Positions 3,054 to 22,438 of a DNA stretch of 32,000 bases are shown here, one piece after another (position 1 is the first letter of the stretch; each line of letters starts with the position of its first letter). The stretch lies in contig VGRY01000036.1 of NCBI GenBank assembly GCA_016875195.1, forward strand, positions 8,889 through 40,888. The letters run 5' to 3'. The notes beneath the pieces were generated by a model that was not told the DNA's origin, searched no databases, and saw only the letters and a list, made by a program, of their open reading frames with translations. Made by a program: the position numbers and the translations under genes. Source of the stretch: Deltaproteobacteria bacterium (GTDB lineage Bacteria; Desulfobacterota; BSN033; UBA1163).

Positions 3054-4061
3054 TTAAACCTTAGGAAGGTAGCCGGTTTCTCTGAGCCACTGCTCGGTCA
3101 GCTTCATTCCCTCTTCCAGAGAAAAACGGGGTTGATATTCCAGTTCTCGTTTCGCTTTCTCAATGCTAAAGTGAGATTGGCGGGTCAGGTATCTGACTGC
3201 TTCGCGCGAGATTTTGGGTGGCTTGCCCGAAAATTTTGAAGTCAATTCCATCCCTAATGCAATAATCCATGCAACTCCTTCGGGCACGGATTTAATTTTA
3301 GACTTCCCAGCCATCCGGGCATAGTATCCAAAAAACTCCTTCCACATCACGGGATTCCCATCACTGACCAAATAGGCCTGCCCTATGGATTGGTCGTTTT
3401 TCGTTGCCGCCAGTGTAGCATCGATGAGATGATCGATATAGACATAGTTGCAAAGGCCAATTCCACCATTGATGAGGATCATTTGCCCCGAATTGACCAG
3501 TTTGATGGGACGGATAGTCCATGGGTTCGAATTTGGACCATACACATTGGCGGGTTGCATGACAACAACAGGAAGCCTTCCCTCCTGATGAGATGCCCAT
3601 ACCGCCTTCTCTCCGGCGATCTTTGTGTCGCAATAGAGATTCCCGCAGGGTTGATAGGGAGTCGTTTCATCCACCTGTTCCGGTGGATTCATCCCATAGA
3701 CAGCCACACTGCTGATGTGGATCAATTTTTTAACTCCAGCCTCGCCCGAAACCTTCAGAATATTTTCCGTACCTTCCACGTTAGTGCGAAAGAACTCATT
3801 CCGGTCTCCAGTCTCACGGACAATGGCAGCACAATGAAAGACAAGATCGCATCCGTTAACGGCATTCTGTAACGAACCAAGATCGAGGAGATCGGCTTGA
3901 ACAACCTCAAGTGGAAGCTTTCGCAGTCGCTCTGCTTTCTTCACATTCCGAACCATCGCTCGAACGTGCACTCCCTCTTCAATAGCCAGCCGCCCTGCCA
4001 AACGGCCCCCAATGAAACCAGAGCTACCCGTCACCAGCGCAGAAAGTCCCCGAATCTCCAT
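3054..4061 (-). CDS. NAD-dependent epimerase/dehydratase (extended SDR family)
   Basis: 335 aa. N-terminal Rossmann motif VTGSSGFIGGRL and catalytic YxxxK (YCDTK). GGAG RBS 10 nt upstream of the ATG. Confidence 0.85.
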   Translation of the reverse strand: MEIRGLSALVTGSSGFIGGRLAGRLAIEEGVHVRAMVRNVKKAERLRKLPLEVVQADLLDLGSLQNAVNGCDLVFHCAAIVRETGDRNEFFRTNVEGTENILKVSGEAGVKKLIHISSVAVYGMNPPEQVDETTPYQPCGNLYCDTKIAGEKAVWASHQEGRLPVVVMQPANVYGPNSNPWTIRPIKLVNSGQMILINGGIGLCNYVYIDHLIDATLAATKNDQSIGQAYLVSDGNPVMWKEFFGYYARMAGKSKIKSVPEGVAWIIALGMELTSKFSGKPPKISREAVRYLTRQSHFSIEKAKRELEYQPRFSLEEGMKLTEQWLRETGYLPKV

Positions 4062-4152
4062 TGTGCTTTTCTCCAGGTAAATTATAATAATATTATTGTT
4101 TGGGTATTGAGTGGGTAACCTCCCCTTGTATCCCTCTTTTACACATCTATAT

Positions 4153-4222
4153 TAACCCCACCCAGCCTCCCCTTACATTAAGTCGTTGCGACTCGAAACC
4201 GAGGGGAGGTGGGGAGGGGTTA
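4153..4222. repeat. G/C-rich imperfect palindrome between nifS stop and epimerase start
   Basis: TAACCCCACCCAGCCTCCCC (4153-4172) is the imperfect reverse complement of GAGGGGAGGTGGGGAGGGGTTA (4201-4222). Inner mini-hairpin GTCGTTGCGAC. Confidence 0.7.
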
Positions 4223-4271
4223 CAAAGGAATGCACCCTCTCCTAAAACTGGAAGAATCGATTATTTTAAAT

Positions 4272-5453
4272 TTATTTCTTTCCTTGGCTCTTTAGGTAGT
4301 CTTTCCAGAAGGGAGAGATATCCCTCAACCTCTGAATGATGGGGGGGAGATGTTCGATGATATAGTCCATCTCCTCTTTGGTGTTATAGATGGAGAGGCT
4401 GAAACGGATGGAGCCGTGAGCGGCTGTAAACGGAACGCCCATCGCCCTTAAGACATGAGAAGGCTCGAGTGAGCCTGAAGTGCAGGCAGAACCCGATGAG
4501 GCACAGATCCCCAAATCAGAAAGAAGAAGAAGGATCGATTCTCCCTCCACATATTCAAAACTGACGCTCACCGTATTGGGAAGCCGGTTCTTCGAATCCC
4601 CATTGACCAATGTATTCGGAATCTTCTCCAGAATTTTCGATTCGAGATAATCCCTCAATGCCCGGACCCGCGTATTCTCATCTTCGAGATGCTTCTTCGC
4701 CAGTTCGCATGCTTTCCCGAGGCCGATGATATAGGGGACATTCTCCGTCCCTCCCCTTCTACCTTTTTCCTGATGGCCGCCGATCATGAAGGGAGAAAAC
4801 TTGGTTCCCTTTCGAATATAAAGAACGCCAATCCCTTTGGGGGCATGGAGTTTATGGCCGGAGATGGAAAGCAGATCCACAGTTGACTTCTTCATATGGA
4901 GTGGGATCTTTCCTGCGGCCTGGACTGCATCCGTGTGGAAGGGGATTCCATTGGACTTCACAATCTGGCCGATCTCATCAATGGGAAAGATCACTCCAGT
5001 CTCGTTGTTTGCATACATGAAGGAGACAATCACGGTATGATCTGTAATCGCTTCCTTCAATTCATCGAGATCCAATCGTCCCTCTCGATCGACAGAGATG
5101 TCTGTGGTTCGGTATCCCTTTCGGCTCAAATAGGAGGATACATTCATCACCGCAGGATGCTCCACGCGGGAGGTGATGAAATGACGTTTTTCAGGATAAG
5201 AATCCAGCGTCCCGAAGATGGCTGCATTATCGCTCTCGGTTCCGCAGCTCGTGAAGACGATCTCCGAAGGGTCCGCTCCCAAAAAATCAGCAACTTTCTC
5301 CCTCGCTTCATTCACCTGCTTTTGAACCTGTCCTCCGAAGAAATGCATGCTTGAGGGATTTCCATAAAACTCCGAGAAGTAAGGCAACATCGCTTCTAGC
5401 ACTTCGGGAGCTACTTGAGTCGTCGCATTATTATCCACGTAAACAGTCTTCAC
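4272..5453 (-). CDS. nifS: cysteine desulfurase NifS (class V aminotransferase)
   Basis: 393 aa. PLP-lysine motif SGHKLHAPKGIG and active-site loop SSGSACTS. 4-nt overlap with nifU. Confidence 0.93.
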   Translation of the reverse strand: MKTVYVDNNATTQVAPEVLEAMLPYFSEFYGNPSSMHFFGGQVQKQVNEAREKVADFLGADPSEIVFTSCGTESDNAAIFGTLDSYPEKRHFITSRVEHPAVMNVSSYLSRKGYRTTDISVDREGRLDLDELKEAITDHTVIVSFMYANNETGVIFPIDEIGQIVKSNGIPFHTDAVQAAGKIPLHMKKSTVDLLSISGHKLHAPKGIGVLYIRKGTKFSPFMIGGHQEKGRRGGTENVPYIIGLGKACELAKKHLEDENTRVRALRDYLESKILEKIPNTLVNGDSKNRLPNTVSVSFEYVEGESILLLLSDLGICASSGSACTSGSLEPSHVLRAMGVPFTAAHGSIRFSLSIYNTKEEMDYIIEHLPPIIQRLRDISPFWKDYLKSQGKK

Positions 5454-14650: not shown

Positions 14651-15283
14651 ATGAAATGGTGTAACGTGCCAGTGCGAGCTATATCCTTATTCAGTCTGGT
14701 CGTCCTCCTGTTTTTACCGTGCAACAGGGTTTTTGGTCAGGGCACCCCAACGGGAACTCCGGATGCCCGGCAGGAGTCCGTGACCACAACGGACCAGACA
14801 CCGCCCCTTCCCGTAGCACAGCCTGAGGTCATCCCGGAGTATATCCTGACCATCGGAAGGACAGGAAATGGATTTGGAAAGGTAACGAATTCGCCCGCGG
14901 GAATCCGTTTCAAAAAGGGGACGTCTGTGACGATTGATGCGCTTCCCGAGGTCAATTCGATTTTCACGGGCTGGAGCGGAAGCTGTTCAGGATCCTCGCG
15001 GACCTGTTTGGTCACGATGACGGCGGACAAGACGGTCACTGCCTCGTTCTCGCTGAAAACTTATACGATACGTGTCCCCTTTCCCGTGAACGGGGTCATC
15101 CATCCTTCAGGGACGATCAAAGCCTTCCACGGCGAGAAGAGGAGGTTCCAGATTATCCCACTTCCTGGGTACCGTGTTTCCGAAGTCCTGGTAGACAAGG
15201 TGTCGGTGGGCGCGCTGAACTCTTACACGCTCAACAATATCACAAGTGATCACGTAGTAGAAGCGATCTTTACAAAGGAATAA
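14651..15283 (+). CDS. secreted protein with InlB-B-repeat-like (bacterial repeat) domain
   Basis: Start moved to ATG 14651 (RBS AAGGAGGA). Signal peptide. YILTIGRTGNGFGKVTNSPAGI...FTGWSGSCSGSSRTCLVTMTADKTVTASF is the characteristic repeat. Confidence 0.7.
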   Translation: MKWCNVPVRAISLFSLVVLLFLPCNRVFGQGTPTGTPDARQESVTTTDQTPPLPVAQPEVIPEYILTIGRTGNGFGKVTNSPAGIRFKKGTSVTIDALPEVNSIFTGWSGSCSGSSRTCLVTMTADKTVTASFSLKTYTIRVPFPVNGVIHPSGTIKAFHGEKRRFQIIPLPGYRVSEVLVDKVSVGALNSYTLNNITSDHVVEAIFTKE

Positions 15284-15458
15284 GAAAACCTGACTGTTAA
15301 CGGCAGTGTCAAATCTATGGCTATGGGTAGAGTAGAGTACGGTCAGGCAACGGAAACACGGTATTTCTTTTTTCCTCCCTGACCACAATTTTTCTTGTGC
15401 ACTTTAATGGTTTTTCAAATAGTTTATCCTCTTGAACAAACTTTTCAACTTTAATGAT

Positions 15459-15545
15459 CCCGCCAACCACAAGGTACTTAACGCCGTGTGAGTTCAGCAG
15501 TCTCAAGAAATCTTTGAAGTCTGGATGTAGTTCTATCTGTGCCAT
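15459..15545 (-). pseudogene. truncated nucleotidyltransferase-like gene remnant (cassette C10)
   Basis: MAQIELHPDFKDFLRLLNSHGVKYLVVGG matches the N-terminus of a small nucleotidyltransferase-like family. The similarity stops after VVGG (about 15459) and the rest of the ORF is low-quality sequence. Confidence 0.45.
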
Positions 15546-15687
15546 AAACCATCCTTCGATATATCTCGATTGCATTCAAGCGGTCAGCCTTTCCACGGGA
15601 CAGCCAATATTGTTCTTCTTCCGTAAATTCATCAAGGGAAGAGACAGTAAGTCGCGTTTTATCCAGACGAGGCATCTCAGTATCCAT
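15478..15687 (-). CDS. small conserved hypothetical protein (cassette C10)
   Basis: 69 aa. RBS GAGAGGAA. The pattern LDKTRLTVSSLDE..EEQYWLS....RLNAIE..R...YG....TSRLQRFLE recalls a widespread 60-70 aa family. Its 3' end overlaps the NTase-like frame. Confidence 0.5.
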   Translation of the reverse strand: MDTEMPRLDKTRLTVSSLDEFTEEEQYWLSRGKADRLNAIEIYRRMVYGTDRTTSRLQRFLETAELTRR

Positions 15688-15712
15688 ATCTCTTTATTCC
15701 TCTCATTTTTCC

Positions 15713-15775
15713 CATAACGGATAGGCTCACCGGGAGCCGGATTTCTTAGCGATCCAGTGGTACCGCTTGTTAAGC
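15713..15775 (-). other. attC site of cassette C9 (63 bp)
   Basis: CATAAC-GGATA-GGCTCAC ... GTGGTACC-GCTT-GTTAAGC. R/L box layout with 5-nt spacers. Related to the attCs at 16377 and 19782 (shared GGGAGCCGGATTT core). Confidence 0.75.
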
Positions 15776-16054
15776 CCTCCTTTTCTCTATTAAATACCCC
15801 GACACATATTTATGAATGATGCTGGATATCAGCGTTTGGTAAGGAATCCCCTCTTGAGCAGCAATAACCTGTACTTGATCCAAATCTCTTGATGCCATTC
15901 GAATATTTATTCTCTTGTCTTTTTGCAGTGTATTCCTTGCATACTCTCGAAGTTTTCTAATTTCTGCCCTTGGATTCTTAATAGATTTCCATTCCCCACG
16001 TTCGTATGACTCTAATATATCTTTTTCTTCCTCATCTAACATTGTCTTTTTCAT
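15770..16054 (-). CDS. brnA: BrnA-like (CopG/RHH) antitoxin
   Basis: 94 aa. INIRMASRDLDQVQVIAAQEGIPYQTLISSIIHKYVSG is the typical BrnA C-terminal motif. Lies 1 nt downstream of brnT. Confidence 0.75.
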   Translation of the reverse strand: MKKTMLDEEEKDILESYERGEWKSIKNPRAEIRKLREYARNTLQKDKRINIRMASRDLDQVQVIAAQEGIPYQTLISSIIHKYVSGYLIEKRRA

Positions 16055-16055
16055 T

Positions 16056-16328
16056 TTATTTCCTCACATATTTGTTGGTGGCTTTTCTACTTGGGATGAT
16101 AGTCTTCAAAAATATCTCATCCCCTTCTTGCATATAAGGAACGAGATAGGCATAATCACCAATCTTCACTGTTGCGATTTTTTGCCCTGGATACTTATCT
16201 TGATTTGGGTGGTTAACTATTTCGAGAACGTCTTCCCGTTCCAGCAAGATAACGACTTCTTCAAAACATACTGCTCTGTTTTCCTTCAACCATTCATTCT
16301 TCGCGTTATCCCATTGAAAGACCTTCAT
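16056..16328 (-). CDS. brnT: BrnT-like (DUF497) toxin
   Basis: 90 aa. FQWDNAKNEWLKENRAVCFEEV ... FLKTIIPSRKATNKY matches the BrnT/DUF497 pattern. Confidence 0.7.
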   Translation of the reverse strand: MKVFQWDNAKNEWLKENRAVCFEEVVILLEREDVLEIVNHPNQDKYPGQKIATVKIGDYAYLVPYMQEGDEIFLKTIIPSRKATNKYVRK

Positions 16329-16334
16329 ATGAAG

Positions 16335-16363
16335 AAATTACGACATTGTGTGCCTTTTGTCAA
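16335..16363 (-). promoter_or_regulatory. cassette-internal sigma-70 promoter for brnTA
   Basis: Minus strand TTGACA (16363-16358), 17-nt spacer, TAATTT (16340-16335). The -10 ends 6 nt before the brnT ATG and there is no SD, implying a leaderless or near-leaderless mRNA. Confidence 0.55.
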
Positions 16364-16376
16364 TATGTTTTTTGTG

Positions 16377-16440
16377 GCTTAACACTACGGCTCACCGGTT
16401 GCGGGTTTATTGGCAATCTGGTGGAGCCGCTTGCTAGGGC
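16377..16440 (-). other. attC site of cassette C8 (64 bp), degenerate core
   Basis: GCTTAAC-ACTAC-GGCTCAC ... GTGGAGCC-GCTT-GCTAGGG. The right-hand core reads GcT instead of GTT. Extra G in the right L box (GT[G]GAGCC). Confidence 0.7.
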
Positions 16441-16629
16441 TTATTTTATTGGGTCAATTCCAAGGTCTTTGCATATCTTTCTAGCAAGACCTTCATCGAT
16501 CTCTGTGTGGCGTGGTACGGATGAGCGTTTGTTCAGGCTTCGATTTCCCCACCATGAATGCCGGGAGCCTTCTCTGATGAATTCGCAGCCATGTGCTCGA
16601 AGGTGTTTGAGAAGTTCAGTTCTCTTCAT
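16441..16629 (-). CDS. hicA: HicA-family toxin
   Basis: 62 aa. LLKHLRAHGCEFIREGSRHSWWGN...SSVPRHTEIDEGLARKICKDLGI is the classic HicA pattern. Confidence 0.85.
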   Translation of the reverse strand: MKRTELLKHLRAHGCEFIREGSRHSWWGNRSLNKRSSVPRHTEIDEGLARKICKDLGIDPIK

Positions 16630-16844
16630 GCAGGTACGGCTATCTTCTCTTCAGCGTATTCCGCCCCAGCGGAGGCGATTGCATCTTGGCGATTAAATTC
16701 AATTGCTTCCTTCAAGGTTATCCGCAAGGTTTCGACCAATTCCTGACGGGTACGTTCCTGGCAGTTTACACCTGGAACCTCCTCTATCCACCCTATCCAC
16801 CAATCGCTTTCTTGTTTTATTATTGCGGTATATTCTGTGGCCAT
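16626..16844 (-). CDS. hicB: HicB-family antitoxin (short UPF0150 type)
   Basis: 72 aa. YTAIIKQESDWWIGWIEEVPGVNCQERTRQELVETLRITLKEAIE. RBS AAAGGAGAA. 4-nt overlap with hicA. Confidence 0.8.
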   Translation of the reverse strand: MATEYTAIIKQESDWWIGWIEEVPGVNCQERTRQELVETLRITLKEAIEFNRQDAIASAGAEYAEEKIAVPA

Positions 16845-16865
16845 AGATTGTTCTCCTTTGATTCC

Positions 16866-16893
16866 ATTATAACGGATATTCAGAAATGTTGAA
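16866..16893 (-). promoter_or_regulatory. cassette-internal sigma-70 promoter for hicBA
   Basis: Minus strand TTCAAC (16893-16888), 16-nt spacer, perfect TATAAT (16871-16866), then RBS and the ATG at 16844. Confidence 0.55.
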
Positions 16894-16910
16894 ATATATT
16901 CTTATTCATG

Positions 16911-16999
16911 CCCCAACGATAGAAATAAGGCGCGGGGGCAACCACCCCAACAAAAGGCGACGGGGCCTATCCCCCGTCGCCTTGATTGATTGGTTATGC
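16911..16999 (-). other. attC site of cassette C7 (89 bp) with internal GC-rich hairpin
   Basis: CCCCAAC-GATAG-AAATAAGGCG ... CGCCTT[G]ATTGATTG-GTTATGC. Inner 12-bp stem AAGGCGACGGGG (16954-16965) / CCCCGTCGCCTT (16972-16983). Close relative of the attC at 18578. Confidence 0.8.
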
Positions 17000-17380
17000 G
17001 ATGTTTTCCCTTGTTTTGTTCTCTGGTGAGATCCTTAGAATCAGCAGATGTAAAGCAATAAAGACCATTAATCCGATAAACGATGAACCGAGTAAGAGTG
17101 CCAGACGCTGGACGTTTAGATCTGCTTTCACAACAACGAGGGGTATCATAAAGAACCAGACGATTGTGCCAGAGAACCAATAGACTACGATCCGTTTCCA
17201 TTTTTTCTTTACGTCTTCTAATTCCGTAATATGAGCTGCCGGAATAGTAAATGCAATCACGAATGACAAGGCATCGACCAAATGCACTCGCATTGGAGCG
17301 CCGGACAGTATCAGCGATAAACCAAAGAAGCCTATCGAAAGAGCTACTGATGAGGTAATATGTCTTTTCATTTTTTGCAT
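16994..17380 (-). CDS. small integral membrane protein (about 4 TM), unknown function (cassette C7)
   Basis: The frame of listed ORF 16994..17407 has strongly hydrophobic segments. The start is trimmed to ATG 17380 because upstream codons lie in the neighbouring cassette's attC. No obvious SD. Confidence 0.55.
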   Translation of the reverse strand: MQKMKRHITSSVALSIGFFGLSLILSGAPMRVHLVDALSFVIAFTIPAAHITELEDVKKKWKRIVVYWFSGTIVWFFMIPLVVVKADLNVQRLALLLGSSFIGLMVFIALHLLILRISPENKTRENIA

Positions 17381-17466
17381 AATGAATTGCATAACCTGCG
17401 CGGGCAATCAGCATTGCCCAAGACCTGACGCGGCTAATCCGCGTCAGGTTGATGCTGTTGTTATGT
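17377..17466 (-). other. attC site of cassette C6 (90 bp), branched, with mutated crossover base
   Basis: GCATAAT-GAATT-GCATAAC ... GTT[G]ATGC-TGTT-GTTATGT. Same box design as the attC at 20451. Two internal hairpins (GGGCAAT/ATTGCCC; CCTGACGCGG/CCGCGTCAGG). Left core is AAT, not AAC. Confidence 0.7.
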
Positions 17467-17874
17467 GCTGATATTTATTCTGTAAATATAGGAGTCTTCG
17501 ATAAAGGTCCCATTTATGGTGTTTTTCGAGAATCGAATTCCCGTAATTCCCCTCCCTGTAGATATCGCAATCCTAAGTACGTTGATTAAGGGATTAGAAG
17601 TATCTGCGACCTTGATATCATTCAATGAAATGATTGACTCCGACTCGTCGGCATTCTTGTTCGCTTCCAAAATGCGCTTATAAAAGCTTCTTGGCCCATC
17701 AGTTTTCACCAAAGGTGAAATTACTATCATTTCCCATGTTTTTTCTTCTGGCAGAAATACCCAAAGCGCAGCTTGAACATTTGACAGTGATTCATCAAGC
17801 CGTTCAACAAGCTTCGCCCCAGCATCAATCATCTGCTCCGACAAAACGTCTCTTACCACCAATTCTTTACCCAT
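17461..17874 (-). CDS. conserved hypothetical protein, partner of the HEPN-like gene (cassette C6)
   Basis: 137 aa. AALWVFLPEEKTWEMIVISPLV..DGPRSFYKRI ... RIAISTGRGITGIRFSKNTINGTFIEDSYIYRI. I recall an uncharacterised family of about 120-140 aa with this pattern but no named domain. 22-nt overlap with the upstream gene. Confidence 0.6.
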   Translation of the reverse strand: MGKELVVRDVLSEQMIDAGAKLVERLDESLSNVQAALWVFLPEEKTWEMIVISPLVKTDGPRSFYKRILEANKNADESESIISLNDIKVADTSNPLINVLRIAISTGRGITGIRFSKNTINGTFIEDSYIYRINIST

Positions 17875-18269
17875 AATAAAATCCCCGATCTATTATTTGT
17901 GATTGCTTCAAAAAAGTCCTTTACCGTGGATTCCTCAATGGTATGCTCGTATCTTGCATCTTCAGACCACCGATTTGCCACAGCCCAATTGAGTTTGAAG
18001 TCTTCATCAGTTTTTTCCTTCTCCTGCAACTTCTGCTTTAGGCCTGCCACACCCAATAAATCACTTAACTTATGCGTGTAGGAGGCATTAGCGAGCTGCT
18101 TGTCTGGAAAGTCATGCTCCCTTACCTGCTTAGCGATGCAGGCCTTGATTGCGCATTCCAGCGCATATCCTAGCAAATAGTATGCTCCTTCGTAACATTC
18201 ATTGTCGAGGAGCAATTTTGCTTCCTTAACCCTAACATCCACGAGGGCTTCGAGATCGCTCTTGTTCAT
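17853..18269 (-). CDS. HEPN-like all-alpha protein (cassette C6)
   Basis: 138 aa. GAYYLLGYALECAIKACIAKQV...YTHKLSDLL ... NRWSEDARYEH resembles COG2250/PF05168-type HEPN proteins (assignment from pattern memory). Confidence 0.55.
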   Translation of the reverse strand: MNKSDLEALVDVRVKEAKLLLDNECYEGAYYLLGYALECAIKACIAKQVREHDFPDKQLANASYTHKLSDLLGVAGLKQKLQEKEKTDEDFKLNWAVANRWSEDARYEHTIEESTVKDFFEAITNNRSGILLWVKNWW

Positions 18270-18296
18270 ATTGTTTGACTTACCTTACATTCTTGA

Positions 18297-18379
18297 CATA
18301 ACGCATAAAATCAGGCGTGGGCTACAGGCGACCCCCGATCTGATAGACATCCACCATCGCCTGAATTGCTTAGTTATGT
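18297..18379 (-). other. attC site of cassette C5 (83 bp)
   Basis: CATAAC-GCATA-AAATCAGGCG ... CCA[T]CGCCTGAATT-GCTTA-GTTATGT. Bulged T on the right arm. Identical to the attC at 20170 except for the neighbour-derived left core. Confidence 0.8.
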
Positions 18380-18390
18380 GGGGTTTTATT

Positions 18391-18582
18391 ATGAGTAAAA
18401 CTACTCCGTTTGGATATCACAGATGTCCTAATTGTAAAGAATACGGATCTCATTTTGTCCCACCATCAATGGGAGAACCTGGATTCTTTTATTGCAAGAA
18501 AAACGAGAAGCAACCATGTCCTACTCATGGATATAAGTATGAGCAAGGCTGCGTTGTTTGTGATAAATACTTGTCCACATAA
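18391..18582 (+). CDS. 63-aa zinc-ribbon-like protein, copy A (cassette C5, antisense to the array)
   Basis: MSKTTPFGYHRCPNCKEYGSHFVPPSMGEPGFFYCKKNEKQPCPTHGYKYEQGCVVCDKYLST, with CxxC ... C-x8-C-x2-H ... CxxC. The minus strand of this cassette has only ORFs of 29 aa or less. An alternative ATG lies at 18376 inside the R box. Confidence 0.55.
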   Translation: MSKTTPFGYHRCPNCKEYGSHFVPPSMGEPGFFYCKKNEKQPCPTHGYKYEQGCVVCDKYLST

Positions 18583-18665
18583 CGCTAGAAATAAGGCGCG
18601 GGGGCACTGACCTCCACTAAAAGGCGACGGGACTATTCCCCGTCGCCTTGATTGAGTTGTTAGGG
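18578..18665 (-). other. attC site of cassette C4 (88 bp) with internal GC-rich hairpin
   Basis: CATAAC-GCTAG-AAATAAGGCG ... CGCCTT[G]ATT-GAGTT-GTTAGGG. Inner stem AAGGCGACGGG (18621-18631) / CCCGTCGCCTT (18639-18649). Confidence 0.8.
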
Positions 18666-18716
18666 AATCAATACTCCTTGTGTCCTTTTAGTATCTTCAA
18701 CTGACCCGCGACGGAA

Positions 18717-19772
18717 TTAACGACTTACCTCTCCTTTGGAGGAGAAGAAGAACACCTTAAGGTCCCTTTCCGGGACGAAGTTCCTAACCCGTGACTCGTA
18801 GCGGTTGTTTCCAGTTAGGCGGATTCTCGGATCGAAACAGGTGCTGACCTCTTCATCTGCTTTCTTCTCAATGGTCAGACGAAAGTCTTTTATCGGCCCA
18901 TGCCAGTTATTAGCGGTAGTCAAAATGTAGGAGACCCAAAATCCCCAAGGGCAATCACTACCCATAGCGCCGTTCTTTCTCATCCAAGAGACAAAGCTTT
19001 CGTTGATGCAGGCATGCCTGCGCAAGAACTCTATATCATCACTTTCGCGCGCACAGAACGAACGAAATCCGGCATATGGACCGTAGGAGTGCTTTATAGT
19101 CAACGTTTTGTTAGCGGGGAATCGCTGGGTCCAATGGTATTTAATCGATACTGTCCAATCGGGAAATACAACGTCTGGTTCCGCTTCTATAAAAGCCCTG
19201 AGAATTCCTAAGTCTATCAGTGTCTTCTTATCCGTAGGTTTAAGACGGTCAACAAAGGTGACATAGCGTCTTTTCATGACAGGGTCGAAACCAGATTCGT
19301 ACTTCCCAAAGTCGACAATAGAAATATTCATGTCTGTGAGAATTTGGGTACAGTCCTTTCCTCTTGCGAACGCTTTTACCTCTCGTTTGTAGGGCTCCTT
19401 TTTCCCATCGACCTCTACGATGAAATCGGAGAAGTTTGTCACCGATCGTCCAAGTAGTGCCCACTTATACTCTGGGATAGGAAATGCCACTTCTGTAACG
19501 ATGTCGCTCGTTGACTGGTTCCTAAAATGACAGATCACTTCAACCCTGTCCCTGCTTATGCTTAGTTCTTCTTTGTCAATCGAGATGTCTTTTATGGACT
19601 TGAATTGGAGGCCTGATGGGGTAACTTCTACTGCTGAATCATTGGCACGGGTAGGCTGGCTGAGTGGCATATAGAGGATGAGGAAAGTGGCGCATAATGT
19701 GCAGAAACGAAGAAAGCTAATCTTTTCAGGTAATGGTAATGCAATACCAAATAGGAAAATATGCTTCTTCAT
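18717..19772 (-). CDS. DUF4424-like secreted protein (cassette C4)
   Basis: 351 aa. Signal/TM N-terminus, then ANDSAVEVTPSGLQFKS..DISIDKEELSIS.DRVEV..HFRN.S..D..TEVAFPIP and WTVSIKYHWTQRFPANKTLTIKHSY, as I recall for DUF4424. Confidence 0.6.
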   Translation of the reverse strand: MKKHIFLFGIALPLPEKISFLRFCTLCATFLILYMPLSQPTRANDSAVEVTPSGLQFKSIKDISIDKEELSISRDRVEVICHFRNQSTSDIVTEVAFPIPEYKWALLGRSVTNFSDFIVEVDGKKEPYKREVKAFARGKDCTQILTDMNISIVDFGKYESGFDPVMKRRYVTFVDRLKPTDKKTLIDLGILRAFIEAEPDVVFPDWTVSIKYHWTQRFPANKTLTIKHSYGPYAGFRSFCARESDDIEFLRRHACINESFVSWMRKNGAMGSDCPWGFWVSYILTTANNWHGPIKDFRLTIEKKADEEVSTCFDPRIRLTGNNRYESRVRNFVPERDLKVFFFSSKGEVSR

Positions 19773-19781
19773 TATTATATC

Positions 19782-19844
19782 CCTAACGATAAGCTTCAGT
19801 GGGAGCCGGATTTATCGGCGATCCACTGGAAGCCGTTGTTCTGT
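19782..19844 (-). other. attC site of cassette C3 (63 bp)
   Basis: CCTAAC-GATAA-GCTTCAG ... CT[G]GAAGC-CGTT-GTTCTGT. The C3 ORF stop codon lies inside the site. Confidence 0.8.
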
Positions 19845-20159
19845 GGCTTTCTTGATCTTGAATGATGACTGCCCAAAGAATATCCAACCCACTTGGCCCT
19901 TTTCACCTTGGACCTTTATGGCCATGTAATCCTTCCCATGGCGAATCCGTCTTACTTTCGCGTTAGTGTTGGCCGCAAGTGTAAATATCGGTTTCATTTG
20001 TTTTGTTGGATACGTTTTCCAATCGGTGTAGGCCAGAACTGATTCTTCGGTGAACACGACGTGTTGCCGGTCTTGAACGATGTCGTAGCCAACGAAGGCC
20101 GCGATTCCAACCACTGGAAGTACTACCACTACAATCAATATTGCCCAAATAATCTTCAT
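19812..20159 (-). CDS. membrane-anchored small protein, unknown function (cassette C3)
   Basis: 115 aa. N-terminal TM helix, then a beta-rich domain (KDYMAIKVQGEKGQVGWIFF is SH3b-like by eye). The last ~8-9 residues (from about LPVDRR) are encoded by the attC. Confidence 0.55.
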   Translation of the reverse strand: MKIIWAILIVVVVLPVVGIAAFVGYDIVQDRQHVVFTEESVLAYTDWKTYPTKQMKPIFTLAANTNAKVRRIRHGKDYMAIKVQGEKGQVGWIFFGQSSFKIKKATEQRLPVDRR

Positions 20160-20169
20160 TTAATCGTCA

Positions 20170-20252
20170 CAGAACGCATAAAATCAGGCGTGGGCTACAG
20201 GCGACCCCCGATCTGATAGACATCCACCATCGCCTGAATTGCTTAGTTATGT
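20170..20252 (-). other. attC site of cassette C2 (83 bp)
   Basis: CAGAAC-GCATA-AAATCAGGCG ... GCTTA-GTTATGT. From 20175 onward it is identical to 18302 onward. Confidence 0.8.
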
Positions 20253-20263
20253 GGGGTTTTATT

Positions 20264-20455
20264 ATGAGTAAAACTACTCCGTTTGGATATCACAGATGTC
20301 CTAATTGTAAAGAATACGGATCTCATTTTGTCCCACCATCAATGGGAGAACCTGGATTCTTTTATTGCAAGAAAAACGAGAAGCAACCATGTCCTACTCA
20401 TGGATATAAGTATGAGCAAGGCTGCGTTGTTTGTGATAAATACTTGTCCACATAA
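20264..20455 (+). CDS. 63-aa zinc-ribbon-like protein, copy B (cassette C2, antisense to the array)
   Basis: Peptide identical to copy A. Both alternative reading frames in the ORF track are also identical between copies, showing nucleotide identity. Confidence 0.55.
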   Translation: MSKTTPFGYHRCPNCKEYGSHFVPPSMGEPGFFYCKKNEKQPCPTHGYKYEQGCVVCDKYLST

Positions 20456-20524
20456 CGCTCCGCATAACCGGCTGGCAATGGAGCGCAGCGGAATTACCAG
20501 TCCGAGTTGATGCGGTTGTTGGGC
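20451..20524 (-). other. attC site of cassette C1 (74 bp)
   Basis: CATAAC-GCTCC-GCATAAC-CGGCTGG ... CCAG[T]CCG[A]GTT[G]ATGC-GGTT-GTTGGGC. All three single-base bulges (T20501, A20505, G20509) are on the right arm of the + strand, so the + strand is the recombinogenic bottom strand and the array reads leftward. Confidence 0.85.
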
Positions 20525-20554
20525 GGCATACCGTTGATGCCACGGACCGATGAT

Positions 20555-20899
20555 TCAGCCGATGGCCCGCTCTTTACCCAATAAAAGGATCTTGGCATCA
20601 CCTTTCGCCTGGGCGCTGGCCCAAAACAGATACGGCGCCAAGAACATCATTCCGCCGAAGAAAGCCACAACACCCAGCGCAATTCCTCTACCGGTAAACT
20701 GGTGACGCCAAGCCACCCAGATACCTGAAAGCCCCAAGAAGGTCATAAAATCTAAGTTGAATTGGCCAGACCAAGTCATTTCAGCGATGTTAGAGAAAAA
20801 GACGGGAAGAAGGTTCCATCCATGATTGCTGCCAACAAAAAGCGTGTAACCGGTCAAGCACACAAAAGCCACGACAAGGTAGATGCGGAACACTTTCAT
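20555..20899 (-). CDS. small integral membrane protein (about 4 TM), unknown function (cassette C1)
   Basis: Start set at ATG 20899 (RBS AAAGGAGAG 6 nt upstream); the listed ORF starts at TTG 20917. Hydrophobic throughout. Confidence 0.6.
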   Translation of the reverse strand: MKVFRIYLVVAFVCLTGYTLFVGSNHGWNLLPVFFSNIAEMTWSGQFNLDFMTFLGLSGIWVAWRHQFTGRGIALGVVAFFGGMMFLAPYLFWASAQAKGDAKILLLGKERAIG

Positions 20900-20949
20900 T
20901 TCATACTCTCCTTTCAATTATGTACGGCATTGGGGGATATGCCGCCCAA

Positions 20950-21060
20950 CAATTAATAGACGCAATTCGTATTTTCTGGGAATTGGATCTTCTAATCTTA
21001 GCTTTTTACTCCTTTTCCCTGCTTTTGTCTACGAAATTCTGCAAAAACCGCACAAAATTA
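20950..21060. other. attI region (attI/cassette junction at 20949|20950)
   Basis: Minus strand reads ...G|TTGGGCGGCAT at the junction, the exact partner of C1's R'' box. A possible weak cassette promoter on the minus strand lies further right: TTGCAA (21131-21126), 16 nt, TGCAAT (21109-21104). The extent of attI is not defined. Confidence 0.55.
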
Positions 21061-21089
21061 TTGACCTAATTTCGCGTTTTCCCTATAAT
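21061..21089 (+). promoter_or_regulatory. sigma-70 promoter for intI
   Basis: TTGACC (21061-21066), 17-nt spacer, perfect TATAAT (21084-21089), about 45-55 nt upstream of the intI start. Confidence 0.65.
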
Positions 21090-21133
21090 AGCATAAAATA
21101 CGCATTGCATATATCATCGGTATTTTTGCAAAT

Positions 21134-22438
21134 TTGGAGCCCGAAGTGCCAAATAGGATATTACCCGAGTTTCAGGACTTTCTTATTTCCCGTTCTCTCG
21201 TATCTGCAAAAAATGCGCCTTTTTACGCTCACTGGGTAAGTAGATTCTTTGCATTCTCAAATATCAATCAAGAGCTCGGGTTCAATCTGAAGGTTCAAAA
21301 ATTCTTAAACCAGTTGAAATCTCAAAAGAAAATTGCTGATTGGCAGATCAAACAGGCTGAGGAGGCTCTTCGATTATATTTTCATCATTTTCTGAATGGT
21401 AAAACCTCTACCCTCTCTCCTGAAGAACCACAAAAAAGGGCCATTGATGCCTCCAAGGCTCTTTGTGACATGCGTCAAGCCCTACGTATCAAACATTATT
21501 CTTACAGAACAGAGCGTTCCTATCTTGAATGGGTTGAAAGGTTCTTCGATTACACATCAAAAATAAAGAAAAAGGATGTTCGAGCTGCCGGCTTGGACCC
21601 GGACGATGTAAGAGATTTTCTGAGTTATCTTGCTATGACAAAAAAAGTTTCATCCTCAACACAGAACCAGGCTTTTAATGCACTTCTGTTTCTCTTCAGG
21701 GATGTCCTTAAAGCTGAGCTTGGTGACATGAGTAAAACAGTAAGGGCAAAGCGCGGACAGAAACTTCCGGTTGTTTTATCTCCAGAAGAGATTCAATCTT
21801 TGTTTAAACATATAAAAGGTTTGAATCTTCTGGTTCTTCAGTTACTTTACGGGTCGGGGCTCCGTCTTTTAGAGCTTGCCCGTTTGAGAGTTAAAGACAT
21901 AGATTTCGACCAAAACCTGGTTTTTGTAAGGGGAGGCAAGGGAGATAAGGACAGAACGACAATTTTACCCCAGACCGTAAAGGGCATGCTTAAGAAACAC
22001 CTTGATGAAGTCAAGCAACTTCATGATAAAGATCTTTCTGGAGGATACGGGGAAGTCTATCTTCCAGATGCCCTGGAACGGAAATATCCAAATGCTGTAA
22101 AGGAATGGGGATGGCAGTATGTGTTCCCATCATCAAAGCTTTCTGTTGACCCAAGGAGTGGGAAGATAAGGCGACATCATATCTCCGAAAAGACGATTCA
22201 GAATGCCGTGAAAGAAGCGGCTCAGAAAGCAGGCATTGTCAAGCATGCATCCGTGCATACTCTCAGACACAGCTTTGCCACACACCTTTTGATGAATGGA
22301 GTGAATATCAGGGAGATACAGAATTTACTGGGTCATAAACATGTGGAGACAACGATGATCTACACCCATGTGATAAGGGATATGATCAGTGTTCCCCAAA
22401 GCCCCCTTGATAGCCTTTACAATAAAAAACCACTCTAA
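21134..22438 (+). CDS. intI: integron integrase (tyrosine recombinase) with extended N-terminus
   Basis: 434 aa. Start is TTG 21134, or GTG 21146 after GGAG. Contains the IntI-specific insertion [53 protein letters not shown], colinear with IntI1 [22 protein letters not shown]...DPRSGVVRRHH. Catalytic [12 protein letters not shown] and [16 protein letters not shown]. C-terminal SPLDSL. Confidence 0.93.
   Translation: [434 protein letters not shown]

Follow-up and report, generated by a model that had tools for sequence, protein, structure and literature searches.

An integron cassette carries a widespread, apparently uncharacterized HEPN gene pair, a candidate toxin-antitoxin-like or abortive-infection module

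Results

A HEPN gene and its partner form one integron cassette

We analyzed a stretch of 32,000 nucleotides (nt) from a Deltaproteobacteria bacterium (contig VGRY01000036.1 of assembly GCA_016875195.1, positions 8,889 to 40,888), hereafter the window, and focused on a two-gene cassette on its minus strand that encodes a HEPN protein of the HEPN-T type and an uncharacterized partner protein (Table 1). The original prediction, made from the letters of the window and a list of its open reading frames (ORFs), had described two ORFs of 138 and 137 amino acids (aa) that overlap by 22 nt and are packaged as one mobile cassette at 17383-18301. Both ORFs, and an overlap of exactly 22 nt, lie where they had been placed, and that span coincides with a cassette bounded by attC-like sites at both ends, with an integron integrase encoded in the same window. 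The HEPN gene and its partner are thus one attC-bounded integron cassette in an array next to intI.

The cassette is tightly packed, with a gap of only ~30 nt between the attC-like site of the preceding cassette and the HEPN start codon, and an Rfam search of positions 15000-21200 returned no match. Since the cassette offers no space for an RNA gene and Rfam recognized none, there is no room in it for an RNA antitoxin.

The pair and its overlap recur across many phyla

We surveyed the pairing of the two families from both sides. Starting from the partner, we scanned the GTDB species, each represented by one genome, and obtained 80 loci, 76 of them evaluable; in 69 of these, the gene immediately upstream, in the same orientation, was a full-length HEPN gene of the family. 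These loci came from Desulfobacterota, Gammaproteobacteria (Shewanella, Vibrio, Photobacterium and Methylomonas), Chlorobiaceae, Bacteroidales, Acidobacteriota, Chloroflexota, Planctomycetota, Nitrospirota and Verrucomicrobiota, and included one Aenigmatarchaeota metagenome-assembled genome (MAG). A HEPN-anchored scan of JGI metagenomes, which reached down to 43% identity, also yielded 80 loci. Ten of these were cut by the end of the contig, with the partner just starting in each, and the 70 evaluable loci held 67 full partners and three variant open partner ORFs, so that the partner was missing in none (0/70). With the families paired in 69/76 and 70/70 loci, the objection raised alongside the original prediction, that they might show no conserved pairing elsewhere, was refuted. 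Pairing of HEPN and partner is near-obligate across many phyla.

The arrangement of the two genes was equally uniform. The overlap measured exactly 22 nt in all 65 scorable metagenome pairs, the partner start codon lay 22 nt before the HEPN stop codon in 144 of 145 pairs, and the NCBI annotation pipeline (PGAP) had annotated the same 22-nt overlap in Escherichia coli. The order HEPN then partner, which the original prediction had singled out as the reverse of the canonical order of minimal nucleotidyltransferase (MNT) and HEPN genes, was seen in all ~145 loci. A GG dinucleotide at -11/-10 of the partner start was invariant (100% of 145 pairs), being part of the codon for an invariant Gly129, and a Shine-Dalgarno-like tetramer (GGAG or GGGG) was present in 135 of the 145. 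A fixed start 22 nt inside the HEPN gene, together with an internal Shine-Dalgarno sequence, indicates that translation of the partner begins within the 3′ end of the HEPN coding sequence, on a shared mRNA, and both proteins would accordingly be made from a single message. Recurrence of the pair with the same overlap in ~145 independent loci is far beyond chance. In their two small, co-oriented and co-translated genes and their patchy, mobile distribution, these loci have the generic layout of toxin-antitoxin (TA) modules of type II. In one Nitrospirales MAG the whole pair occurs twice on a single contig, as diverged copies separated by 4 kb (locus L054, 3609-4402 and 7641-8399).

The first protein is a HEPN protein with a non-canonical putative active site

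The first protein had been described as all-alpha and HEPN-like, and both profile and fold bore this out. It matched the Pfam HEPN family PF05168 above the gathering threshold (26.3 bits against a cut-off of 22, E = 9e-6, residues 14-136), and several of its homologues carry precomputed PF05168 hits. An AlphaFold2 model was all-alpha, with a mean predicted local distance difference test (pLDDT) score of 90.7, and when this model was searched against the PDB with Foldseek, the top nine matches were all HEPN proteins, with template modeling (TM) scores of 0.42-0.63, probabilities of up to 1.0 and weak E-values (≥0.14). Top matches included ST0689 (1wol), 4nqf, the PaREP1-like protein 2q00, AF0298 (2hsb), TM0613 (1o3u), AbiV (9bj6) and TT1696 (1ufb). 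No PDB chain matched the sequence profile of the HEPN family at E ≤ 1. The two AbiV models gave weak matches below their cut-offs (TIGR04498, 18.5 bits against 27, E = 0.002; PF18728, 16.1 against 27.1, E = 0.013), and the PADLOC model PDC-M28A matched the protein distantly (E = 1.6e-7).

We then compared conserved residues among 127 homologues. R13, E38, H66, R106 and Y107 were invariant (127/127) and K42 was present in 126. The canonical Rx4-6H motif of HEPN RNases was absent, there being no conserved histidine at +4 to +6 from R106; the window protein does have a histidine at +3 (H109), which only 21 of the 127 homologues share. In AF0298-type HEPN-T proteins and in AbiV the motif histidine has likewise been lost, and a conserved upstream histidine has been proposed to rebuild the site (PMC3710099). 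Judged by sequence conservation, the present family has the same combination, with R106 and the N-terminal H66 both kept in 127/127 homologues. Because Rx4-6H is absent, RNase activity, if it exists at all, must use an alternative R/H site, and catalysis through R106 and H66 is plausible. We predict an active site composed of these two residues and aided by R13, E38 and K42, which would stand in for Rx4-6H in a metal-independent RNase toxin.

The partner belongs to an unannotated protein family

A Deltaproteobacteria MAG encodes a hypothetical protein with exactly the sequence of the partner (100% identity). Searches of Pfam, NCBIfam and PADLOC gave no match, even when 28 close and 43 distant family members were scanned individually at permissive E-values, and a profile search of the PDB returned only chance matches, such as muskelin and pyruvate oxidase. 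Its AlphaFold2 model (pLDDT 91.5) runs in the order helix, two strands, two helices, strand, helix, two strands, and found no Foldseek match at E ≤ 0.001 in the PDB or BFVD. The family is large, with 109 clusters at 90% identity; at the 50% level it counts 2,737 representatives (E ≤ 0.001). It appears to be an uncharacterized protein family.

Its best-conserved residues are G19, W38, W47, G60, Y65, R114, D127 and Y131. The last three fall within the motif GITGIRFSKNTINGTFIEDSYIYRI (residues 109-133), which the original prediction had taken to be conserved, and R114, D127 and Y131 are indeed kept in at least 95% of the 127 homologues. The original prediction had seen no MNT signature in the partner, and the partner is indeed not an MNT protein: a nucleotidyltransferase signature was absent by eye and by profile, with no GS and no DxD motif, D27 and D127 were the sole conserved acidic residues, and NTP_transf_2 matched none of the 28 and 10 members scanned at E-value limits of 10 and 0.1.

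The three variant partners noted above, all on metagenome contigs, have open reading frames, and two of them contain an insertion of ~20 aa. One of the three lacks the GISGIRFS..NTING segment and keeps the terminal (D/E)xxIY(R/F)L strand, so the motif is not indispensable in every lineage. On a plasmid of Deinococcus sp. AB2017081 (NZ_CP140099.1, locus positions 3600-5368), the partner domain is fused to DUF3800 in a protein of 460 aa, and a HEPN gene of the family (43% identity) overlaps the fusion gene by 22 nt. DUF3800, which is RNase H-like, is known to occur in type VII retrons and at Cas12a2 loci. We considered the fusion as a lead toward a modular adaptor and dropped it, as it had only two relatives, confined to Deinococcus.

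The pair travels on prophages and other mobile elements

Of 5,426 complete E. coli genomes, 190 (3.5%) carry the pair, always on the chromosome, where PGAP labels the two genes "HEPN domain-containing protein" and "hypothetical protein" (HEPN, WP_001038620.1; partner, WP_000520499.1 or WP_000520500.1). The two copies that we inspected (L172 and L173, 9001-9797) belong to DLP12-like lambdoid prophages and are flanked by the replication genes (P, ren) on one side and ybcN-ninE-ybcO-rusA on the other. Their upstream morons differ, a TagO-like gene in one and a gene for a P22AR C-terminal domain in the other, and this difference suggests that the site is a variable accessory slot. A comparable slot after the replication genes, between replication and antirepressor genes, is the usual place of accessory and defense genes in lambdoid prophages (PMC13043305).

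The pair was also found in Klebsiella phage Kp4864-1 and in five IMG/VR contigs, each of which carries both genes. In Shewanella saliphila (L022, 363-4615) it sits in a 4.1-kb integrative islet at tRNA-Ser, which reads tRNA-Ser, a 481-aa integrase-like ORF, a 304-aa ORF without assigned function and the HEPN-partner pair, and is closed by a repeat of the tRNA 3′ end, with the pair as its sole recognizable cargo. Elsewhere the pair interrupts unrelated metabolic operons. The E. coli accessions were absent from the literature that we searched and from the DefensePredictor supplements, and we found no paper there describing the pair. Taken together, the pair is a real, widespread and apparently uncharacterized two-gene HEPN module.

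The HEPN gene decays and the partner diverges

Every disrupted module that we found, apart from one, had a damaged HEPN gene beside an intact partner. Five loci carry a 5′-truncated HEPN remnant (L001, L007, L053, L067 and L070), one an N-terminal stub (L020), and two a frameshift or stop codon in the HEPN gene (L049 and L084). In the exception (L167), the HEPN gene is deleted and the partner itself lacks its N-terminus. The HEPN gene was disrupted in 7 of 76 loci with an intact partner, and the partner was missing in 0 of 70 loci with an intact HEPN gene (Fisher p = 0.014, on small counts from different collections, genomes in the one case and metagenomes in the other). Decay confined to the HEPN gene would be expected if an unprotected HEPN protein were toxic and the partner by itself harmless.

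The two proteins also change at different rates. Partner proteins are on average 40% identical to one another, HEPN proteins 52%; the partner diverged faster in 95% of 8,001 pairwise comparisons, with a co-divergence of r = 0.76. Faster change is usual for antitoxins and for sensors alike.

The surrounding cassette array

The integrase gene, divergent from the array, is a 434-aa ORF from a TTG codon. Its TIGR02249 match begins near residue 110, and the true start probably lies well downstream of the TTG. Further families of attC-like repeats dot the array between 15.3 and 20.5 kb. A crude attC detector found no site directly 3′ of the pair in 140 other loci, the same detector having missed most of the attC sites in the window; it also flagged a 70-nt inverted repeat with TAAC...GTTA cores and complementary arms far outside the array (Table 1).

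Addiction-type cassettes had been predicted on either side of the pair, and the neighboring cassettes do look like BrnT/BrnA-type and HicA/HicB-type pairs, mainly from a reading of their sequences, whereas NCBIfam returned only a weak BrnA match (E = 0.0015) and none for the HicAB-like pair. The array also holds one cassette twice, duplicated at 99% identity, which encodes a 68-aa, Cys-rich, zinc-ribbon-like protein (CPNC...CVVC) in the orientation opposite to that of the remaining cassette genes, and a large cassette for a DUF4424 protein with a hydrophobic N-terminal segment.

Table 1. Features of the cassette, its array and the wider window (positions in the window).
Feature	Position	Strand	Length	Evidence or remarks
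HEPN-T-type gene, predicted toxic or effector RNase	17853-18269	-	138 aa	ORF list of the window; PF05168, fold, conserved residues
Partner gene, uncharacterized alpha/beta protein, predicted antidote or regulator	17461-17874	-	137 aa	ORF list of the window
Dual-coding overlap	17853-17874	-	22 nt	HEPN C-terminus ..WVKNWW then stop; partner N-terminus MGKELVV..
Shine-Dalgarno-like GGGGA within the HEPN gene	17882-17886	-		7 nt 5′ of the partner ATG
attC-like site closing the cassette	17390-17466	-		Directly after the partner stop; inverted repeat with paired ATAAC...GTTAT cores; fold -24 kcal/mol, z = -5.3
attC-like site of the preceding cassette (5′ boundary)	18296-18378	-		ATAAC...GTTAT cores; folding z = -2.6
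Integron integrase gene	21134-22438	+	434 aa	TIGR02249 (437 bits against a cut-off of 265), PF00589, PF13495
Adjoining cassettes, BrnT/BrnA-type and HicA/HicB-type in appearance	15770-16328 and 16441-16844	-		Mainly sequence reading
Cassette present twice	18291-18586 and 20164-20459	+	296 nt	99% identity
DUF4424 cassette	18717-19772	-	351 aa	E = 5e-60
Isolated attC-like inverted repeat	4153-4222		70 nt	Crude detector

Discussion

A toxin-antitoxin-like or abortive-infection module

On balance, we favor the reading that the pair is a TA-like or abortive-infection module in which the HEPN protein is the toxin and the partner, a new protein, its antidote. A TA or defense function had been put forward as an inference in the original prediction, and the one-sided decay of the HEPN gene and the occurrence on prophages and other mobile elements now lend it support. 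The partner would most likely neutralize the HEPN protein by binding it directly, in the manner of a type II antitoxin, rather than by nucleotidylylating it. Were the partner lost or inactivated, the HEPN RNase would be freed and growth arrested, with loss of the carrier element, shut-off of host gene expression or a phage factor as candidate triggers, and this arrest may stabilize the mobile element, abort phage infection, or both.

Several observations weigh against this reading. The HEPN protein is missing the canonical Rx4-6H motif, and we know of no AF0298/TM0613-type HEPN-T member with demonstrated RNase activity. Toxin-first gene order is a minority arrangement in type II systems. No sigma-70-like promoter stood out 5′ of the HEPN gene, and none was recognized in the cassette. 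With only five IMG/VR contigs, the pair is not a common phage gene, and the decay contrast is subject to the limits of collection and sample size given with it.

A bolder version of the favored reading, which we put forward only tentatively and consider doubtful, is that the pair constitutes a new anti-phage abortive-infection system of bacteria and one archaeal bin, in which a partner of new fold or family both cages a non-canonical HEPN-T RNase and senses infection. Such a system would be common enough to protect 3.5% of E. coli strains while residing in their lambdoid prophages and to circulate as a single integron cassette, and would give a first functional handle on the AF0298/TM0613-type HEPN-T proteins, a large and biochemically silent group.

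We weighed this interpretation against four others. The pair could be a sensor-effector defense pair without classical TA behavior, in which the HEPN protein is auto-inhibited and harmless alone, as in HepS and Tha, and the partner is a phage sensor or activator. Its position in the prophage accessory slot where the solo HEPN defense protein HepS sits, the relatedness of the HEPN protein to the defense candidate PDC-M28A and the faster change of the partner, as seen in sensors, all fit this idea. A harmless HEPN protein, however, predicts decay of either gene, while only the HEPN gene is lost beside intact partners, and nothing would favor the retention of a sensor left on its own; we therefore regard this explanation as unlikely. 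The same pattern of decay speaks against a reversal of roles, with the partner as toxic effector and the HEPN protein as a non-catalytic antitoxin or RNA-binding regulator. Although the canonical catalytic histidine is missing from the HEPN protein, and most type II operons begin with the antitoxin gene, at least eight loci retain an intact partner where HEPN is disrupted, so that the partner is not toxic alone. An intact HEPN gene was never found without a partner ORF, and six charged or polar residues of the HEPN protein, typical of an active site, are invariant or nearly so. Of all the explanations considered, we give this one the least credence.

We also think it quite improbable that the pair is type VII-like, with the partner a highly derived MNT-like enzyme that covalently modifies the HEPN protein, possibly at the invariant Y107. 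HEPN-T proteins usually pair with MNTs (PMC3710099), a tyrosine directly follows the invariant arginine here, and the weak Foldseek matches of the partner include MNT antitoxins and a Sulfolobus nucleotidyltransferase (7ae2_B, 7aer_A and 2rff; TM scores 0.32-0.40). These matches are not significant, however (E ≥ 0.08), and BolA, uS3 and ferredoxin-like folds score equally; the partner has neither GS nor DxD, D27 and D127 being its only conserved acidic residues, none of the 38 members scanned matched NTP_transf_2, and the gene order is reversed. Nor do we see much likelihood in a housekeeping or regulatory pair in RNA metabolism that has no role in conflict and is on mobile elements by chance. 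Some copies do lie within metabolic operons, but the pair is patchy across phyla and present as single copies, occurs in only 3.5% of E. coli genomes, in prophages in both copies inspected, and is found besides in an integron cassette, a tRNA islet and a phage genome, and its pseudogenization is frequent.

Few effectors are commoner in the conflict systems of prokaryotes than HEPN proteins. Small stand-alone HEPN toxins are known to be controlled by an MNT enzyme (type VII), by RNA (AbiV, type III) or by auto-inhibition (HepS and Tha). If the TA-like or abortive-infection reading is correct, the pair would add a fourth mode of control, by a dedicated protein of an unannotated family of ~2,700 representative clusters; the non-canonical R/H site of HEPN-T proteins would be functional, and the AF0298-type HEPN-T group would gain a function. 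The conserved 22-nt overlap with its internal Shine-Dalgarno sequence makes a clean case of dual coding and translational coupling, and occurrence as a single cassette supports the view that integrons stockpile miniature TA and defense systems. Candidate modules of this sort are numerous, and TA or abortive-infection modules with a HEPN effector are already known as a concept. As the pair is compact (~0.8 kb) and present in E. coli prophages, it is readily tested genetically.

Comparison with known systems

Three described HEPN systems were set aside. The "integron cassette HEPN" family of Anantharaman et al. (3jrt) was not recovered, since the HEPN profile found no PDB chain at E ≤ 1 and 3jrt was not among the fold matches; Esos of Vibrio cholerae is, by its description, a single-gene HEPN-like cassette, unlike the two-gene pair; and DS-28 of DefensePredictor, a HEPN nuclease with a 252-aa protein, gave an hhalign probability of 0.1% for both proteins.

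The closest candidate in PADLOC is PDC-M28, itself unvalidated. All 24 HEPN family members tested matched PDC-M28A (best E = 1.2e-10). PDC-M28 is a three-gene cassette (M28A-B-C), however, of which only M28A was matched here, and no partner homologue matched any PADLOC model. HepS (Gifsy-1) and Tha (Staphylococcus aureus) are likewise HEPN effectors in the accessory slot of temperate prophages; by their descriptions they differ in acting without a partner, each as one protein that has the canonical Rx4-6H motif and is activated by tail proteins. AbiV of Lactococcus (AbiV1 with the RNA antitoxin abiV2, type III) resembles the pair as proposed here: a HEPN RNase is restrained by what its neighboring gene encodes, to anti-phage effect. 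It is longer, at 201 aa, and has an active R91/H97 motif, and its antitoxin is an upstream non-coding RNA (10.1101/2024.05.05.592566), whereas here a conserved protein is encoded downstream and there is no room for an RNA gene.

The PF05168 HEPN-T proteins ST0689 (1wol), AF0298 (2hsb), TT1696 (1ufb) and TM0613 (1o3u) are the best structural matches of the present HEPN protein, and AF0298 shares with it the absence of the Rx4-6H histidine and the presence of a conserved upstream histidine (PMC3710099). These proteins are mostly archaeal or from thermophiles and adjoin MNT genes, in contrast to the dedicated non-MNT partner and fixed 22-nt overlap seen here. In general design, the pair is like the type VII HEPN-MNT (HepT-MntA) systems of Shewanella (SO_3166/SO_3165), Aphanizomenon and Legionella: a small stand-alone HEPN protein of ~130-140 aa, presumed to be a toxic RNase, shares a two-gene operon with a similarly sized partner, and such operons are widespread, mobile and common in environmental bacteria. 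The present partner, however, has neither MNT motifs nor a matching profile, and its gene comes second, whereas the MNT gene comes first; the present HEPN protein belongs to PF05168 (HEPN-T) and not to DUF86, and lacks the RX4HXY motif, including the tyrosine that is AMPylated in type VII systems. Where MntA acts by oligoAMPylation, we predict that the partner described here acts by binding.

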